From a virus, in the IMG/VR virus record IMGVR_UViG_3300005518_000002, positions 1-64,000 of that record: a stretch of 64,000 bases of DNA; one strand, 5' to 3'. The notes under the pieces are model-generated. The model had not been told where the DNA came from, searched no databases, and saw only the letters and a list, made by a program, of their open reading frames with translations. This document shows, one piece after another, positions 1-6,330 of this stretch. The number at the start of each line of letters is the position of its first letter. Position 1 is the first letter of the stretch. The position numbers and the translations under genes were made by a program.

Positions 1-117
1 GCCCTGCGCAGGGCGGGACACCGGGAAGCGGCCGAGACGTTCTCCCGGGAAGCCGTGGACTCCCCGTCGTACGACGCGCTGATTCAGCTCGCCATGCGCA
101 CGGTGGACGTCCGGTGA
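1..117 (+). CDS. 3' fragment of a phage hypothetical protein
   Basis: Frame 1 reads ALRRAGHREAAETFSREAVDSPSYDALIQLAMRTVDVR*; stop overlaps next GTG (GTGA). Confidence 0.55.
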   Translation, partial: ALRRAGHREAAETFSREAVDSPSYDALIQLAMRTVDVR

Positions 118-242
118 GCCCGGTCAAGCGGGCCAAGGTGTACAAGGCGGGAGAGGAGCCTCCCGAGGAGTACACCGGGGAGCTTCGGCTCCCGAAGGAC
201 AGGGCCGCGCGCAGGCGCATGATGAAGGACAGGAAGGTCTGA
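114..242 (+). CDS. small hypothetical protein
   Basis: GTG coupled to upstream stop; 42 aa with GC3-rich codons. Confidence 0.45.
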   Translation: MSPVKRAKVYKAGEEPPEEYTGELRLPKDRAARRRMMKDRKV

Positions 243-247
243 ACAAA

Positions 248-280
248 GCATCCCTCCCGCTCATGCGTCGGGAGGGATGC
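248..280. other. hairpin immediately upstream of tRNA-Phe
   Basis: GCATCCCTCCCG ... CGGGAGGGATGC inverted repeat. Confidence 0.6.
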
Positions 281-282
281 GG

Positions 283-355
283 GGGTCCCTAGCTCAGCCG
301 GAAGAGCGCCGGAGTGAAATCCCGGAGGTCACAGGTTCGATCCCTGTGGGGCCCA
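283..355 (+). tRNA. tRNA-Phe(GAA)
   Basis: Cloverleaf: acceptor GGGTCCC/GGGGCCC, D stem GCTC/GAGC, loop GTGAAAT, T arm ACAGG-TTCGATC-CCTGT; no encoded CCA. Confidence 0.9.
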
Positions 356-381
356 CGCGTACAACCGAAACGAGGAGTCAC

Positions 382-1563
382 ATGATCACCCCCAAGCAGT
401 GGCCGGACGCTCTCAAGTCCGTGCTGTGTTTCGCCGTGGCTGCCGTGCTGTTCGCGGCGGCTCCCGCGTGCGGCACGGCGCAGCGTCCGGCCGTCCACCG
501 GGACACCCTGGAGCTGTCTGTGGTCGCCGCCACGCAGCAGCAGGTGAAGCTCGATGCGCTGTCCGTCAGTCCGGCCGCCCCGCAGGAGGGCCAGCCGGTA
601 CGGGCCACGGCCCGGCTGCACGTCACCTCCGGAACCCTGACAGCGCAGAGGATCAAGATAGCCGTCCGGGACAGCGCCGGACGCAACCTGGACTTCACCG
701 GAGGGCTGACCGGCTACACGGTCACCTCCACGCCGCACAGCTTCACCACGGCCGCCCGGACCTTCGCGCCGGGGACCTACCGGTACTTCGCCAGCTACCG
801 CTACCGCGACGTCTGGCACCCCTTCCCGGCGAAGACGTTCACCGTCTCCGCCCGCCCGGTCCCGCCGGGCAGCGGTCCGCTGGGAGTCCCCGGATCGTGG
901 GCGCTGGCCCGCGCGGACGACTTCAGCGGCACATCGCTGAACACCGCGCTCTGGCGCAAGAACTGGGGCGGGGGTCCGGGCCCGATCAACTCGGCCGAGA
1001 CTGCCTGTTACGCCTCTGATCACGTCACGGTGTCCGGCGGCATGCTGAACCTCGCGCTCACCCCCGGCTCGTCCTGCGGCAAGGCGTGGACCGGCTCCGC
1101 GGTGACCACCGACCCGAGCGACGGGCGGGAATCCGGCGGCTGGCAGTCCAGCGGAACCACGGTGTTCGAGGCCCGGGTGTTCGTCCCGGCGGACAGCACC
1201 GGCAAGGTGAGCAACTGGCCTGCCTGGTGGGCGACCGGTCAGAGCTGGCCCGCCACGGGAGAGATCGACATAGCCGAGGGACTGAGTGGTCAGGTCTGTT
1301 CGTACTACCACTCCAGCTCCGCCAACGACGGCGACTGTGCACCGGGCAGCTACGCCGGAGCCTGGCACGTCTACTCCGCACAGCTCGTGCCCGGATCGAA
1401 GGTCACCTGGTACTACGACGGCCGGGTGGTCCACACGCAGACTTCCGGAGTGGCAGCCTCTCCGCTGTACCTGGTGATCGACAACACCAATGGGGACTTC
1501 GGAGGGACCAAGGAATCCAGCACCCTGAAAGTCGACTGGGTGCGCGTCTGGAAGAAGGCATAG
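382..1563 (+). CDS. secreted glycoside hydrolase family 16 protein with N-terminal Ig-like domain
   Basis: RBS GAGGAG; hydrophobic signal peptide; DDFSGTSLN..W, WPAWW, catalytic EIDIAE and VDWVRVW motifs of GH16. Confidence 0.85.
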   Translation: MITPKQWPDALKSVLCFAVAAVLFAAAPACGTAQRPAVHRDTLELSVVAATQQQVKLDALSVSPAAPQEGQPVRATARLHVTSGTLTAQRIKIAVRDSAGRNLDFTGGLTGYTVTSTPHSFTTAARTFAPGTYRYFASYRYRDVWHPFPAKTFTVSARPVPPGSGPLGVPGSWALARADDFSGTSLNTALWRKNWGGGPGPINSAETACYASDHVTVSGGMLNLALTPGSSCGKAWTGSAVTTDPSDGRESGGWQSSGTTVFEARVFVPADSTGKVSNWPAWWATGQSWPATGEIDIAEGLSGQVCSYYHSSSANDGDCAPGSYAGAWHVYSAQLVPGSKVTWYYDGRVVHTQTSGVAASPLYLVIDNTNGDFGGTKESSTLKVDWVRVWKKA

Positions 1564-1565
1564 TG

Positions 1566-1673
1566 ATGATGGAATTCGCGGTGGTCCTCATGGCCGCTGT
1601 ACTGGCAGTCACCGCAGGTTCGTTCGGCCTGTTCCGGGCGTACTTCGGGTACTGGCCCTGGAAGGGAATGTAG
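1566..1673 (+). CDS. small membrane protein
   Basis: MMEFAVVLMAAVLAVTAGSFGLF...; directly after GH16 stop. Confidence 0.55.
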   Translation: MMEFAVVLMAAVLAVTAGSFGLFRAYFGYWPWKGM

Positions 1674-1700
1674 ATCAGCGCCGGGCCACGGCCCGGTTGG

Positions 1701-1773
1701 TCCCCGGTAGCTCAGCAGGCAGAGCAGCGTCCTGTTAAGGCGTGGTGCGCTGGTTCGAATCCAGCCCGGGGAG
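1701..1773 (+). tRNA. tRNA-Asn(GTT)
   Basis: Acceptor TCCCCGG/CCGGGGA, loop CTGTTAA, T arm GCTGG-TTCGAAT-CCAGC, discriminator G. Confidence 0.93.
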
Positions 1774-1877
1774 CGAGGGGGTCAGCAGTACAGTGACGGA
1801 TCATGCGAAGCCTCCGGGCGTCCGTCGCTGACCAGAGCTGCTGACCCCCGCAACTGAACACCGAAGGAGGAAAGATC

Positions 1878-2246
1878 ATGGGAAGCCTTAAAGGACTCAA
1901 GACGGGTGACGAGGTTTACCTGGTGACCCGTTACGGGGGTCGCCGGGAGAAAGACCAGACACCCCCGACAGTCACCATTCACAAGGTCGGCCGCACGCTG
2001 GTGCACGTCCTCCTCTATCCGGAAAGGCTCGACCTCGGGACCGAAACGTACCGGATCGAAGACGGCGTTCGGAACGACAACTACGGGCACAGCTACCTGA
2101 TCACCCGGGAAGAATACGAAGCCCGGAAGATCCAAAGTGAACTGCTCGAAGAACTGCGCAAGCTCGGAGTCCGGTTCGACCACGGCCGGACTCCGGAGAG
2201 TCCCAGTGTTCTGCGCGCCATGATCGCAGCACTGGGCTGGCAGTAA
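1878..2246 (+). CDS. hypothetical protein
   Basis: RBS AAGGAGG; 122 aa ORF. Confidence 0.8.
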   Translation: MGSLKGLKTGDEVYLVTRYGGRREKDQTPPTVTIHKVGRTLVHVLLYPERLDLGTETYRIEDGVRNDNYGHSYLITREEYEARKIQSELLEELRKLGVRFDHGRTPESPSVLRAMIAALGWQ

Positions 2247-2295
2247 CACGGCATTGGATCCCCGCAGGACAACTGAAACCGAGAGAGGAAAGACC

Positions 2296-2712
2296 ATGGG
2301 AAAGATCACGCCCTACCAGCAGGTGGGGACAGACGGCCGGACGGTCCTGGAGTTCGGGCCCCGGTACAGCCGGGTACCGCAGGACGACACCACGCTCCTG
2401 AGCGTGTTCCACCGGACCACGAACGGCGGTGTCAGCTTCCTGCTGGAGCGGGACGACTTCGCTGTGCTGGCCGAGTGGTTCCGGGGCAGTGAGCCGGAGA
2501 TCGAGTTCTCCGACCTGACCCACCGGGCAACGGTGCGCCGGTACGAGAGCGGCTACGGCGTTGTCACCGTTGCCTGGCACAGTGCGTCGGGCGACTCCCG
2601 CTCGGTCGCTCTGTCGGCCGGGGACATGCGCTCCGTGGCTGCCTGGCTGGACAAGGCCGACCGGCAGGGCTGGGAGGGCTGGAAGTCCGGCCAGAGGCGG
2701 GTGAACGTATGA
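2296..2712 (+). CDS. hypothetical protein
   Basis: RBS GAGAGGA before ATG 2296. Confidence 0.75.
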   Translation: MGKITPYQQVGTDGRTVLEFGPRYSRVPQDDTTLLSVFHRTTNGGVSFLLERDDFAVLAEWFRGSEPEIEFSDLTHRATVRRYESGYGVVTVAWHSASGDSRSVALSAGDMRSVAAWLDKADRQGWEGWKSGQRRVNV

Positions 2713-2972
2713 GGATCCACACCAGGCTGGCCGTCGGTACCCGCGTCTACCACGGCGCGCAGCAGTGGGCTCGGGCACAGATCGGCGGTACCGGCGTCAT
2801 CGTTGCCGTGGCCGATCATCCCTGCTCCGACGGCAGCTGGGAGTACCAGGTGCGCACCGGCAAGGACTTCAGCCGGATGCCGGGACCGGGCAATCCGGAG
2901 ACCGACCTGCGCTGGTGGAACTCCTGCCATACCCGCAGGGCACTGACCGTGAAGGACCTGGAGCACCTGTGA
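2709..2972 (+). CDS. hypothetical protein
   Basis: ATGA overlap with upstream stop. Confidence 0.7.
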   Translation: MRIHTRLAVGTRVYHGAQQWARAQIGGTGVIVAVADHPCSDGSWEYQVRTGKDFSRMPGPGNPETDLRWWNSCHTRRALTVKDLEHL

Positions 2973-3055
2973 GAGGAGGCCGGGGGTTGTCCCCCGGCCT
3001 CCCACCTGATTTACTGAAATCGCAAGTCCAACTGAACGAACAAGGAGCAAAGATC

Positions 3056-4237
3056 ATGACCGACACTCTCCGCCGCACCGGATTCGACACCCTGCTGGCC
3101 ACGCTGGACGAGCAGCAGGAGCGCAAGGTGGACGTCGTCGTCCCCGCGACCAACCTCTGCTTCTCCGGCGGGAACCTGCGGGTCCTGCGCAGCGACCTGG
3201 AGCCGACCCTGACCGAGACCGGCGTGAAGTCCCCGGTGCAGGTGTTCCGCCCCACGGACATCTTCGACGAGGGGGTCAGCTCCCGCGTCGGCATCCCCCG
3301 GGCCTTCCTGCGCACGCTGCGCGAGAACGGATGGACCGACCTGATCGACGGCACCCTCAACGGCCTGATCTTCGGCAAGACTGTCTCCGACGGCAGCTCC
3401 CCCGAGCCCCGGGTGATCCGCGAGCCGCTGGACAAGTCGTTCATGCTCCGCGCGCTCAAGGATGCGGACGGCGGCGAGATCGGCAGCGCCCGCGCGCTCC
3501 TCAGCAACGCGTACAAGATCGTGGACCACACGGAGACGCTGCGCGCCGCGATGGCGGGCATGAAGGCCGCCGGACTCGGCCCGCAGAACATCACCTCGTG
3601 TGACCTGACCGGCCGCCGGATGTACGTCACGGTGGAGGTCCCCGAAATCCGGGTGCAGGCCGAGAGCCTGCTCAAGAACTACGTGAGCCCCTTCACGGGC
3701 AACCGCGGAGCCGAGAACCCGGTCGTCCACGCGGGCTTCGTCCTCGGCAACTCCGAGACCGGGCACGGGTCGTTCTTCCTCTACCCCCGCATCGTTGCGG
3801 AGGTCTGCACCAACGGGATGACCATCAAGAAGGACGTCGGTGCGCTGGCGCAGCGTCACCTCGGGGCCCGGCTGGACGACGGCCTGGTGGACTACTCCGA
3901 CGCCACCCGCAGGGCGAACCGTGAGCTGATCATGAGCATGGCTCGGGACACCGTCCGCACCTTCATGACCGAGGACTACCTGCACACGGTCGTGCGCAAG
4001 CTGGAGGAGAAGGCGGGCGAGCCGGTCCGCCAGCCGGAGAAGGCGATCAAGGAGGTCACTCAGAAGCTTGAGGTCTCCGCGCTGTACGACGACGTGCTGG
4101 CCCACTTCATCAAGGGCTCGGACCTCACCCGCGGCGGCATCATGCACGCGGTCACCGCAGCCGCCCAGTCCGGTGACATCGACGCCGACAAGGCGTTCAT
4201 GATGGAAGAGCGCGCCACGGCCATGCTTCTCGGCTGA
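3056..4237 (+). CDS. DUF932-family protein
   Basis: RBS AAGGAG; GFVLGNSETGHGS and VCTNGM motifs. Confidence 0.75.
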   Translation: MTDTLRRTGFDTLLATLDEQQERKVDVVVPATNLCFSGGNLRVLRSDLEPTLTETGVKSPVQVFRPTDIFDEGVSSRVGIPRAFLRTLRENGWTDLIDGTLNGLIFGKTVSDGSSPEPRVIREPLDKSFMLRALKDADGGEIGSARALLSNAYKIVDHTETLRAAMAGMKAAGLGPQNITSCDLTGRRMYVTVEVPEIRVQAESLLKNYVSPFTGNRGAENPVVHAGFVLGNSETGHGSFFLYPRIVAEVCTNGMTIKKDVGALAQRHLGARLDDGLVDYSDATRRANRELIMSMARDTVRTFMTEDYLHTVVRKLEEKAGEPVRQPEKAIKEVTQKLEVSALYDDVLAHFIKGSDLTRGGIMHAVTAAAQSGDIDADKAFMMEERATAMLLG

Positions 4238-4280
4238 GCAGCCGCCAGACGGCCGGTTACAACTCCCCCCGTGACCGGCC

Positions 4281-4329
4281 TGCCGGACCCTCCCCCGCCC
4301 CATCCCCCGGGAGGGTCCGGCACCCTTTT
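4281..4329 (+). terminator. putative intrinsic terminator or processing hairpin
   Basis: TGCCGGACCCTCCC ... GGGAGGGTCCGGCA followed by CCCTTTT. Confidence 0.55.
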
Positions 4330-4330
4330 G

Positions 4331-4421
4331 GCCTCCGTAGCTCATATGGACAGAGCGCCGGACCCCCACGTTTGACAGTGGGGGTATCCGGAGACAGCAG
4401 GTTCGAATCCTGCCGGAGGCA
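4331..4421 (+). ncRNA. tRNA-like RNA with extended anticodon arm
   Basis: Perfect acceptor (GCCTCCG/CGGAGGC), D stem and T arm (GCAGG-TTCGAAT-CCTGC); anticodon arm CCGGA-CCCCCAC-GTTTGACA-GTGGGGG-TA-TCCGG. Confidence 0.85.
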
Positions 4422-4462
4422 CGCAAGACCAGACGATCACATCCACCGATCAAGGAGTCCTC

Positions 4463-4582
4463 ATGAAGTCCAGTCTGACCCGCGCTCTCGCCCGCATCCT
4501 CGGCACGCTGGGTGATGTGTGCATCTCCTGCAAGCTCGGATCGTGCTGTGGCGGGTGCGGCTGCTGCACGAGCCGTCCCTGA
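4463..4582 (+). CDS. 39-aa cysteine-rich peptide
   Basis: RBS AAGGAG; MKSSLTRALARILGTLGDVCISCKLGSCCGGCGCCTSRP. Confidence 0.65.
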   Translation: MKSSLTRALARILGTLGDVCISCKLGSCCGGCGCCTSRP

Positions 4583-4652
4583 CCCCTCAGCATCCGGGCC
4601 CGGCCGTCGCTGGCGGCCGGGCCCTCCCGAACAACAGATCAAGGAGAACAGA

Positions 4653-5015
4653 ATGATCATCACGTACCTCACGCTGGGGATGCTGATCACCACCTCACTC
4701 CTCAACATCGTCGCCAAGGTGATGCTGGTCGGGAAGAAGCCCCCGGTCCTCGGGAACGGCGTTGCCGTGGCCTCGGTATTCCTCTCACTGTCGATGATCG
4801 CCGGGCTGGCCTTCATCGTGTCGCAGCACCGGGAGGACGCCTACGTGATCTTCTCGGTCGCTGCCCTGTGCTTCTGGACCGGGATGGAGATGGCCCGGGA
4901 CATCAGCCGGATCGGCAAGGAGACGGTGGTCCGCACCGCGCAGTCAGCCCGGCAGGCTGTACTGAGGGAAATGATCTATATCTCCCTGGCAGTCCTCGTC
5001 CTGGCCCACATCTGA
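4653..5015 (+). CDS. multi-pass membrane protein
   Basis: RBS AAGGAG; about 4 hydrophobic segments. Confidence 0.75.
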   Translation: MIITYLTLGMLITTSLLNIVAKVMLVGKKPPVLGNGVAVASVFLSLSMIAGLAFIVSQHREDAYVIFSVAALCFWTGMEMARDISRIGKETVVRTAQSARQAVLREMIYISLAVLVLAHI

Positions 5016-5030
5016 CAGGGAGAAATGACC

Positions 5031-5198
5031 ATGGCACAGCCAAGGGGTTATCAGTTCCGGCAGCGTCCCGGGGGGCGCGGTGCGGTCGTCCGCATCAGCG
5101 AGACGGGCGGGGCCAAGGTGATCGCCGTCTACAACGACCAATGGACGGCAGACCGCGTGGCAAGGCTGCTGGACGGCTTGAAAGACCAGGAGGCGTGA
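5031..5198 (+). CDS. small hypothetical protein
   Basis: RBS AGGGAG; MAQPRGYQFRQRPGG...; alternative ATG at 5025. Confidence 0.6.
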   Translation: MAQPRGYQFRQRPGGRGAVVRISETGGAKVIAVYNDQWTADRVARLLDGLKDQEA

Positions 5199-5202
5199 AG
5201 AC

Positions 5203-5439
5203 ATGACCTACGTTTTCTCCGCCCCCCGGCGGGCGGCCGACGCACAGGCGACCCTCACCCACCGGGGTGAGGGGTACCAGATTCTGGCCTGGAACCGGCG
5301 CATGGAGATCCAGGTATGCGCCTGGAAGGGCGAACGGCCGAAGGACAAGGCCGCCGCGCCGCTGCACGACTGGGCGTACCCGAAGGCTCTCGGACTCTCC
5401 GGTGCGATCGAACTGTTCTGCAAGGAGGCGTTCCGGTAA
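5203..5439 (+). CDS. hypothetical protein
   Basis: RBS AGGAGG. Confidence 0.65.
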   Translation: MTYVFSAPRRAADAQATLTHRGEGYQILAWNRRMEIQVCAWKGERPKDKAAAPLHDWAYPKALGLSGAIELFCKEAFR

Positions 5440-5807
5440 TGGCGAATCTCGTCCGGCGTCTAGATGAAGCAGAGGGAAAGATCAAGCGGGAGGAGGCGTT
5501 CTACAACCAGGGCCGTGCCTTCTGGGCGGGTACCGGCGGGGCGCGCTCGACTGGCTCACTCCCGCCGCGGTACCACGACGCAGCCCGGCGTGCGCGCTAC
5601 GTTGTCTACAGCTACCGGACCCCTATCGGCTGGGTCACCCAGGAGGGTGAGCGGGTCGTGCCGGACGTCGGGTACAGCGACACCACGTCTCAGCATCAGT
5701 ACACGGTCCTGCACGCATGGGAGATCCGCCGGTTCCCCGCCCGTGGCCGGGAAGTCCGGCGGGCAGGCGGAGGCCCCCGGCGCGGAGGTATCGACGACCA
5801 GCACTGA
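5439..5807 (+). CDS. phage hypothetical protein
   Basis: TAATG coupling, RBS AAGGAGG; YSYxTPI...YSxTTSxHQ pattern. Confidence 0.7.
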   Translation: MANLVRRLDEAEGKIKREEAFYNQGRAFWAGTGGARSTGSLPPRYHDAARRARYVVYSYRTPIGWVTQEGERVVPDVGYSDTTSQHQYTVLHAWEIRRFPARGREVRRAGGGPRRGGIDDQH

Positions 5808-5813
5808 CGCACC

Positions 5814-5848
5814 CGAAAGGGCCCTCCGGAATCCGGAGGGCCTTTTCG
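5814..5848. terminator. intrinsic (possibly bidirectional) terminator
   Basis: CGAAAGGGCCCTCCGGA-A-TCCGGAGGGCCTTTTCG. Confidence 0.8.
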
Positions 5849-5919
5849 TATTTAGGGGGTTCCGGCTTGACATTTCAGACGGATAGTTAAAGCAAGAACG
5901 AACATGGAAGGAGCCGCAC

Positions 5920-6330
5920 ATGCCTCCAGCCGAGCTGTCCTGGGCCGCTACGGAGGTCCGCTGGCAGGACGAAGCCGAGTGCAGGAACCACCCCGGTATT
6001 GACCTCTGCCCCGACCGGGAGACAGCAAAGGAGCGGGACGAGATTGCCGGGCTCCTGTGCAATCACTGCCCGGTCCGTGAGCAGTGCCTCATGTACGCAC
6101 TGATGAACCGGGCGGAGGGCTACTGGGGAGGAACGGACACCGCGCAGCGCCGCAAGCTGAGCGCGAAGAAGGACCGGGCCAAGTGCCCCGTCTGTTCGAG
6201 CAAGAACCTGGTCAGAACCAGCATCCACGAACTGTGCCTCTCCTGCGGCCTGTCGTGGACCAGGGCCAGCCGACCGGCACTGGGGCTGGTCCGTGAGCTG
6301 GATCCGGCTGCCATGGAAAGGTACGTGTAG
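5920..6330 (+). CDS. whiB: WhiB-family transcription factor with C-terminal zinc ribbon
   Basis: W..EAEC, CNHCPVREQCL, GYWGG WhiB signature; extra CPVC...CLSC. Confidence 0.85.
   Translation: MPPAELSWAATEVRWQDEAECRNHPGIDLCPDRETAKERDEIAGLLCNHCPVREQCLMYALMNRAEGYWGGTDTAQRRKLSAKKDRAKCPVCSSKNLVRTSIHELCLSCGLSWTRASRPALGLVRELDPAAMERYV

Follow-up and report, generated by a model that had tools for sequence, protein, structure and literature searches.

A probable non-decoding, tRNA-Arg-derived RNA gene with a closed, elongated anticodon arm in a phage of soil actinomycetes

The first 64 kb of an 81,859-bp IMG/VR phage record (66% G+C; the whole record is called G000) were analysed as one stretch, referred to below as the window. 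At positions 4331–4421 of its plus strand lies a 91-nt tRNA look-alike whose anticodon loop is replaced by a second helix. With high probability, this element is a non-decoding RNA gene derived from tRNA-Arg. Moreover, it is one case of a clade-wide habit, in which anticodon-less look-alikes stand singly in the gaps of an operon, most likely as punctuation. This habit was absent from an earlier reading of the DNA (the original prediction). The carrier is a phage of soil actinomycetes.

Two tools recognise the element as a tRNA body. ARAGORN reports 4331–4422 as tRNA-??? with no anticodon assigned, and the Rfam tRNA model RF00005 covers 4331–4421 end to end at 56.1 bits, well over the cut-off of 29 (window E-value 2e-9). 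The Rfam alignment spans model positions 1–71, with 23 nt where the model expects 6. The minimum-energy fold is a cloverleaf of -49.5 kcal/mol (z -5.6), matched by 0 of 200 shuffles and stable inside 238 nt of context. Fold, ARAGORN and Rfam agree with the structure originally described, namely flawless acceptor, D and T arms and an anticodon arm in which a UA bulge parts a 5-bp helix from one of 7 bp that is capped by 8 unpaired nt (Table 1). The landmarks of the tRNA family are all present: U8, A14/G18/G19/A21, G53-T54-T55-C56-R57-A58, C61 and the 7-bp acceptor stem. Folded by itself, the anticodon arm reaches -22.4, compared with -10.1 ± 2.7 for composition-matched shuffles (2/2000; p about 0.001). 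Its distal hairpin occurs once in the genome and elsewhere only in near-identical strains, and a dispersed palindromic repeat or mobile hairpin is ruled out by this uniqueness. For the tRNA-like domains of transfer-messenger RNA (tmRNA) or YrlA, no Rfam match was found at E<=1 on 4250–4500, and ARAGORN reports no tmRNA; the RNA ends of the look-alike form a normal acceptor stem, unlike the long stem of the YrlA type. On the opposite strand, a 601-aa open frame (window 3011–4816, minus strand) crosses both the element and the preceding protein-coding gene, termed the anchor gene. This frame is almost certainly a shadow frame of high-G+C DNA, since the plus-strand gene has many homologues.

The descent of the body is indicated by its D arm and the 5′ strand of its anticodon stem. 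A scan for these two segments, with one genome per bacterial species, returned 120 loci and 111 callable tRNAs; 110 of the latter are tRNA-Arg, all 74–77 nt long. Therefore, the element very probably derives from tRNA-Arg, in line with the Arg-like body noted at the outset. The loops of these cellular tRNA-Arg genes read C-U-NCG-R-A, followed by UCCG(G/U). Because they end in A before UCCG, the A of the UA bulge is probably the ancestral A38. Judged from this alignment, C32 and A38 are kept, while positions 33–37 appear to have been swapped for 22 nt that are predicted to fold back into a closed, bulged 12-bp arm. The Arg identity elements of the body, A20 in the D loop AUAUGGACA and A73, are both present. 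The anticodon determinant of arginyl-tRNA synthetase (ArgRS) is C35 with G/U36; in the element the loop is gone, and other bases, engaged in pairing, stand at these positions. Of the IMG/VR tRNAs that match its acceptor and D stems, those with U73 are Thr and those with A/G73 and a GGA(C/U)A D loop are Arg(UCU), and the long arm was seen only in the window's phage and that of the relative L022. A scan of IMG/VR for the conserved 5′ half gave matches only in the window's phage and the relative G006.

A decoding tRNA has an anticodon stem of 5 bp and a 7-nt loop with U33, an anticodon and a purine at position 37, and the longest stem among known decoding tRNAs is 6 bp (PMC7609411). The element has a 12-bp arm and lacks a 7-nt loop, U33 and a readable anticodon. 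The claim that it cannot decode normally is thus borne out, and because the anticodon loop is gone, no adaptor role on the ribosome is expected.

Anticodon-less look-alikes are frequent in the clade. A tRNA-model match was scored as non-canonical if it failed the requirement of U33, a purine at 37, at least 4/5 stem pairs and a 3-nt anticodon, with one criterion for all sets. In ten related records, 14/37 matches are non-canonical (38%), compared with 15/417 (3.6%) in unrelated phage loci and 7/264 in bacterial loci; the clade differs from the unrelated phage loci with p 1.5e-9. Ascertainment differs slightly between the sets, and without three clade genes that ARAGORN misses the clade count is 11/34. 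The unrelated IMG/VR phages of the control set also hold occasional odd tRNAs, at L066:11540-11615 and L034:8366-8441; one has a Thr-type body with an anticodon loop of 11 nt, and for the other the anticodon is called as the four bases 'UUUU'. Separately, two Amycolatopsis chromosomes carry dense arrays of 11–12 tRNA genes (L157:6903-7970 and L166:207-1424). Three tRNAs of each array have C33 instead of U33, namely Leu(CAG), Leu(GAG) and Glu(CUC) in L157 and Gln(CUG), Leu(CAG) and Glu(CUC) in L166, and the 'Leu' genes are only 75 nt long. The Glu loop of the array, CCCUCAA, is identical to the tRNA-Glu loop of the relative G008. The array may represent a shared mobile tRNA array and hint at the host group.

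The same genomic slot was compared in relatives. The anchor protein has more than 100 homologues at 60–85% identity, and in most relatives a tRNA or tRNA-like slot comes directly after its gene; the comparison of arm length and covariation covers about 10 lineages. L009 and L010 have an identical arm and two structure-neutral changes elsewhere in the element. L007 carries a normal tRNA-Trp(CCA), L005 a 7-bp stem with the loop CGUGACC, L006 an extended, imperfect arm, and L077 a 71-nt gene with the loop ACUGAUC. The UGA common to the terminal loops of the window, L005 and L077 was judged a post-hoc coincidence. In L022, the acceptor and T stems are as in the window, and the arm consists of 4–5 bp, a GA bulge at the same place as the window's UA bulge, 6 bp and a tetraloop. 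In L014, a 13-bp hairpin with two G.U pairs accompanies a degenerate D arm. The gene is absent from L012, L074 and L076, where only the hairpin and the ribosome-binding site of the next gene are found. In one 96%-complete relative, the non-canonical gene of the slot is the sole tRNA-model match.

L014 and L022 share about 99% identity over 300 bp on each flank and differ in the slot gene. The divergent block starts a few bases 5′ of the tRNA-like gene and stops at the discriminator, which, from the aligned sequences, we read as a cassette swap. G006, a distant but complete 88-kb relative with 44% anchor identity, has another long-arm gene of Arg type and 91 nt, which lies at a different locus, away from the anchor. 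Its gap-free alignment with the window element shows near-identity at positions 7–33. The arm again has 34 nt and 12 bp, but here an internal loop separates helices of 7 bp and 5 bp, and the loop CCUAAGU closes the second helix. Two short-arm versions with a tetraloop occur at G005:45970 and G007:47474. G006 further contains L101 (G006:57027-57096, minus strand), a 70-nt tRNA-shaped gene with CUA (amber-reading) in the loop, G33 and a reduced D arm, which ARAGORN calls 'Pyl'.

Across eight cassettes, all 56 acceptor pairs and all 40 T-stem pairs are standard, with two-sided changes at 7/12 positions. Covariation had been named as a check. For the long arms, strict covariation between the window and G006 was rejected: the pairing registers differ, and the two arms are therefore equal-length different solutions rather than aligned compensatory pairs. 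Between the window and L022, the body-stem positions are identical at 32/32 and the loop and linker positions at 13/25 (p 7e-6). Together with the perfect body stems, this upholds the argument that perfect pairing speaks against decay. The arms themselves are heterogeneous. Two of them, in the window and in L014, greatly exceed shuffled sequences in stability, that of L005 is intermediate (p≈0.03), and those of L022, L006 and L077 are no better than shuffles. The 13-bp arm of L014 is specific to the RNA strand because of its G.U pairs (-23.7 vs -15.2 on the other strand). Among strains of the window's phage, A4394G lies in the variable loop and C4414U leaves a G.U pair, and the structure is preserved in both cases.

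The element also shares its setting with the other tRNA-shaped genes of the genome. It was originally said to follow a hairpin, as two normal tRNAs do; this is true and general, since all 7 tRNA-shaped genes lie 2–9 nt after a GC-rich hairpin. The module consists of a stop codon, the hairpin, the 2–9-nt spacer, the tRNA or look-alike, 25–40 nt with a Shine–Dalgarno sequence, and a start codon. The hairpin-then-tRNA layout is also found in relatives, and C-rich-loop hairpins precede the slot in L005, L006 and L007. The two hairpins ahead of the element (window 4250–4325) give a match to the actinobacterial 6C RNA that is below threshold (31.9 bits vs a cut-off of 47). A promoter and terminator scan of positions 1–6000 found no promoter-like site, and nothing at the element; the spacing between hairpin and tRNA is too short to hold a promoter. 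One co-oriented gene string runs from about 74 kb across the record end to beyond 9 kb, with 8 structured RNA elements, one per gap. One of these gaps holds a type II hammerhead ribozyme. Hammerheads are found in 3/4 other complete relatives (4/5 complete phages of the group), where they score above the Rfam cut-off and occupy intergenic gaps of this operon; G003 has two, 400 nt apart.

Based on these observations, we tentatively favor a role in cis as a processing mark, in which RNase P and RNase Z would excise a non-decoding, tRNA-derived RNA. The element would be transcribed within the long co-oriented operon. Host RNase P would cut at its 5′ end, and the upstream message would then end in a GC-rich hairpin a few bases before the cut, with the second hairpin acting as 3′-end protector of the upstream mRNA. 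RNase Z would cut after the discriminator, and the downstream message would gain a 5′ end about 40 nt before its start codon. Real tRNAs, other look-alikes and the hammerhead ribozyme would do the same punctuation job in neighboring gaps, and the released small RNA may have a further role. Because decoding would not be required, the anticodon arm would be free, while the acceptor, T and D arms would be constrained, which is proposed as the reason why relatives carry many unrelated arms on intact bodies. A processing mark would account for a body under constraint beside a free arm, for the module that recurs at each tRNA-shaped gene, for the nearby ribozyme and for retention in a relative that keeps no decoding tRNA.

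Several points weigh against this processing role. The element is dispensable, since three relatives have only the hairpin and Shine–Dalgarno sequence in the gap. Its sequence was found in no RNA run among the listed public runs, and only in DNA contigs. A purifying-selection test of the window against L010 gave 2 changes vs 2.4 expected, in a comparison that has no power because third-position divergence is only 2.7%. Furthermore, punctuation alone leaves unexplained both the stable long arms of the window and L014 and the recurrence of 10–13-bp arms in four cassettes. The precise swap between L014 and L022 fits an accessory, conflict-driven locus at least as well, and the conservation of the body could date from the real-tRNA past of the cassettes.

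Such a conflict-driven locus would be expected if the look-alike acted in trans between phage and host, as a processed, CCA-added, stable decoy, sponge or inhibitor. On present sequence comparisons, we regard this as possible but rather unlikely. The roles put forward in the original prediction, a decoy, a modulator of a synthetase or of the stringent response, and an aminoacyl donor, are speculative. Candidate targets are ArgRS, reached via A20, toxins or nucleases directed at tRNA, and enzymes of acceptor-end modification; the arm might also be a scaffolded hairpin payload. Since it has no anticodon loop, such an RNA would resist anticodon nucleases and go unrecognised by the ribosome. The retained A20 and A73 point in this direction, as do the arms of 10–13 bp in four cassettes and the second Arg-type gene of G006, which repeats the length of 91 nt and the 34-nt/12-bp arm size with a different distal sequence at another locus. 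The exact swap between flanks of about 99% identity and the variable presence of the gene resemble accessory counter-defence loci, and anticodon-nuclease pressure has been proposed to shape phage tRNA evolution (PMC10264068). On the other hand, the arms vary in sequence, register and stability, with those of L006 and L077 no better than shuffles. The cassettes stem from different tRNA bodies, and thus have no common recognised feature beyond the tRNA shape. Moreover, a decoy must compete with a very large cellular tRNA pool. We hold a narrower form of the proposal to be unlikely, in which selection in soil actinomycete phages would maintain a class of long-arm RNAs, each with a complete tRNA body and a closed arm of about 12 bp, that host tRNA enzymes release and that titrate, for example, ArgRS or a tRNA-directed defence enzyme. 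If it were true, an arms race would have left its trace in the cassette swaps seen among near-identical phages.

It is similarly doubtful that the element is a functionless relic, that is, a former phage tRNA-Arg that lost its loop by an insertion or a template switch making a perfect palindrome and is too young to have decayed. The arms are heterogeneous across the clade and some are unstructured, the T loop is aberrant in L006 and the D arm lost in L014, some relatives lack the gene, and the low-power strain comparison is close to the neutral expectation. These signs are opposed by the perfect acceptor, D and T arms of the window, L022, L005 and L077, by the contrast between stems and loops in the comparison with L022, which is not decay-like, and by strain variants that both keep the structure. 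Additionally, a relic accounts poorly for a clade in which 38% of the tRNA-shaped genes are anticodon-less, for the retention of such a gene as the sole tRNA-shaped gene of a nearly complete relative, and for an arm in L014 that is specific to the RNA strand through its G.U pairs.

It is very unlikely that the element is a decoding tRNA after all, either because host enzymes remove the insert or because the 8-nt loop decodes as a quadruplet or suppressor anticodon. In intron mode, ARAGORN does propose Gly(CCC) with a 17-nt intron, and phage tRNAs with short inserts are on record (PMC6784885). We enumerated all contiguous excisions for the window element, L006 and L014, and none restores a Y-U-NNN-R-N loop; no excision yields U33 together with purine 37, even when the proximal stem is allowed to open by 1–2 bp. 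The Gly(CCC) reading has C33, on a body with A73 and C3:G70, and these two features do not suit bacterial tRNA-Gly identity. A bulge-helix-bulge motif is absent, as the arm has one 2-nt bulge, and the insert of 17–24 nt is far below the size of a group I intron, whose catalytic core takes 200 nt or more. No intron family of Rfam matches around the element at E<=1. The 81.9-kb phage genome has no domain of RtcB, Rnl-type RNA_ligase, tRNA_int_endo or RNase III, and a CCA-adding enzyme was not found in it. The original option of a removable insert is not supported, since no excision restores a loop and the phage lacks splicing or ligation genes; a mini-intron was rejected on the same grounds. Judging from A-form geometry, the 12-bp arm would also place the loop about 20 Å past normal anticodon reach. 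Finally, a DNA-level element, in which the 7-bp inverted repeat with its 8-bp spacer is a protein-binding or recombination site, is most improbable: the window repeat has no mismatch and its two strands fold with about the same stability, but it is unique in the genome and sits exactly at the tRNA arm position, stacked on the native stem, and relatives' arms use G.U pairs and are strand-specific, as in L014.

The anchor protein matches phrog_1362 (9.6e-67). It has no Pfam, NCBIfam or PDB sequence match, and its structural model (predicted local distance difference test 72.5, moderate confidence) has no Foldseek/PDB fold match; in the absence of a family or fold match, there is no hint of RNA handling. 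Among GenBank phages, it has only distant homologues (<45%), in Arthrobacter, Gordonia and Mycobacterium phages. Compared with strain L010, the anchor gene (window 2765–4237) has 41 nucleotide differences, only 13 of them at third codon positions, which suggests that the divergence of the anchor is amino-acid-changing; the 600 nt downstream are nearly invariant. The 39-aa peptide encoded after the element has 8 cysteines in its C-terminal half, ending ...CCGGCGCC..., and no family in Pfam, PHROGs or NCBIfam. In the same operon, 2 kb upstream, a 122-aa protein (window 1878–2246) contains a phage ProQ C-terminal-like domain (PF24203, 2e-13) and may possibly bind RNA.

Beyond the window end, the record holds a second non-canonical look-alike in the same module, at 77111–77200 of G000 (L003:205-294). 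Its T arm is perfect, but the acceptor stem has flaws and the D and anticodon arms are weak; Rfam misses this gene, which ARAGORN reports as 'Ala(AGC)'. At 81130–81201 (L003:4224-4296) lies a 72-nt, class-I-sized tRNA with the anticodon UAA, which reads UUA, the rare Streptomyces bldA codon, and with a C.C mismatch at the loop end of the anticodon stem.

Table 1. Features of the tRNA look-alike, its flanks and related RNA elements. Coordinates refer to the window unless stated otherwise.
Feature	Coordinates	Strand	Remarks
tRNA-Phe(GAA)	283..355	+	same hairpin–tRNA–Shine–Dalgarno–gene module, same operon
tRNA-Asn(GUU)	1701..1773	+	same hairpin–tRNA–Shine–Dalgarno–gene module, same operon
Anchor gene, 393 aa from M98 of a 490-aa frame opening at 2765	3056..4237	+	phrog_1362, function unknown
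First GC-rich hairpin, C-rich loop	4251..4280	+	after the stop codon; folds
Second GC-rich hairpin, 14 bp, C-rich loop, then ACCCUUUUG	4282..4321	+	ends 9 nt before the element
tRNA-Arg-derived (very probable), anticodon-less look-alike, 91 nt	4331..4421	+	through discriminator A; CCA not encoded
Acceptor stem, 5′ strand	4331..4337	+	7 Watson-Crick pairs with 4414–4420
D arm GCUC / AUAUGGACA / GAGC	4340..4356	+	4-bp stem, 9-nt loop; A14, G18, G19, A20, A21
Proximal anticodon-stem strand CCGGA	4358..4362	+	pairs with 4387–4391 UCCGG; same as cellular tRNA-Arg
Distal extension, 7-bp helix CCCCCAC/GUGGGGG (4363–4369 / 4378–4384)	4363..4384	+	stands in place of ancestral loop positions 33–37
Terminal loop GUUUGACA, 8 nt	4370–4377	+	caps the 7-bp distal helix
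UA bulge, 3′ side of the arm	4385..4386	+	between proximal stem and distal helix
Variable loop, 5 nt	4392..4396	+	A4394G in other strains
T arm GCAGG / UUCGAAU / CCUGC	4397..4413	+	5-bp stem; cloverleaf fold and Rfam tRNA model
Acceptor stem, 3′ strand	4414..4420	+	pairs with 4331–4337
Trailer starting CGCAAG, then Shine–Dalgarno sequence	4422..4462	+	CGCAAG common to relatives' slots; proposed RNase Z side and leader of the next mRNA
Next gene, 39-aa Cys-rich open reading frame	4463..4582	+	41 nt after the element
Type II hammerhead ribozyme	76005–76068 of record		39.3 bits, cut-off 37; gap of the same operon
Other type II hammerheads in the group	L226–L230; L005:1994-2060
Long-arm gene of G006	G006:81026-81116 = L098:1501-1591	- (L098)	first acceptor pair is a C.A mismatch

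The record has a 120-bp terminal repeat, and contig L003 is a circularly permuted version at 99.5% identity; because of both, the record represents a complete, circularly assembled genome. A blastn search of GenBank phages with window 4200–4500 gave no match. The element, with its hairpin unchanged, stands in contigs of several soil and rhizosphere runs from 2017–2025, and none of those contigs holds an insert-less form.

Phage tRNA genes are usually seen as codon supplements, or as a means to replace tRNAs that host defences have destroyed. Here, more than one third of the clade's tRNA-shaped genes gave up the anticodon and kept the tRNA body, with one structured RNA per gap and a ribozyme in the operon. 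If the punctuation role is true, the tRNA shape would be a portable signal by which bacterial viruses address host RNase P and RNase Z, and many 'odd' or 'undetermined' phage tRNA calls would reflect processing signals rather than mistakes in annotation. If the look-alike acts in trans, it would be a new kind of RNA counter-measure. In either case, the element is small and well defined, and the precise cassette swap supplies natural variants for comparison.

tRNA-like processing signals and pseudo-tRNAs are already known kinds. In the literature search, we found no description of a tRNA-Arg body with a closed 12-bp arm, of a phage clade in which over a third of the tRNA-shaped genes lack the anticodon loop, or of cassette swapping of anticodon-less tRNA-shaped genes. 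Compared with canonical tRNA-Arg, the element shares the acceptor, the D arm with A20, CCGGA/UCCGG, the 5-nt variable loop, the T arm and A73; in contrast, canonical tRNA-Arg has a 7-nt anticodon loop with U33, and its cellular forms have 74–77 nt rather than 91 nt. In eukaryotes, an RNase P cut before mascRNA gives the upstream RNA, MALAT1, a structure-protected 3′ end. The hairpin-then-tRNA order here follows the same logic, although mascRNA is without an elongated anticodon arm.

The introns of Lak megaphage tRNAs are likewise short, hairpin-forming inserts in the anticodon region, but those tRNAs keep, next to the insert, an intact anticodon and a loop that can be restored (Devoto et al. 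2019, PMC6784885). tRNA-Pyl, tRNA-Sec and mitochondrial tRNA-Ser(UCN) also have anticodon stems of more than 5 bp, in some cases with a base left unpaired on the 3′ side; these reach 6 bp with a 7-nt loop and decode, whereas the element has 12 bp and no anticodon loop (PMC7609411). Bacillus cereus tRNA-Other is tRNA-derived, undergoes tRNA-like processing and has no role in translation, a processing that is only proposed for the element; it differs in its normal anticodon loop with a Trp anticodon and in an arm that is not elongated (PMC3399842).

The closest likeness in proposed function is to the t-elements of plant mitochondria, where cuts by RNase P and RNase Z at non-canonical cloverleaves define mRNA ends (Forner et al. 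2007, PMC1920247). t-elements are organellar and usually degenerate in several arms, whereas the body of the element is pristine and only its anticodon arm is rebuilt longer. Both are non-canonical cloverleaves with a conserved T arm, GGUUCRANYCC in t-elements and GGUUCGAAUCC at 4400–4410 here. By its position, the element would lie between mRNAs, as it is intergenic in a co-oriented string, with a hairpin 9 nt upstream and the next start 41 nt downstream. Like t-elements, it would stand beside mRNAs in a long transcript and is not expected to decode, and real tRNAs would do the same job at other junctions.

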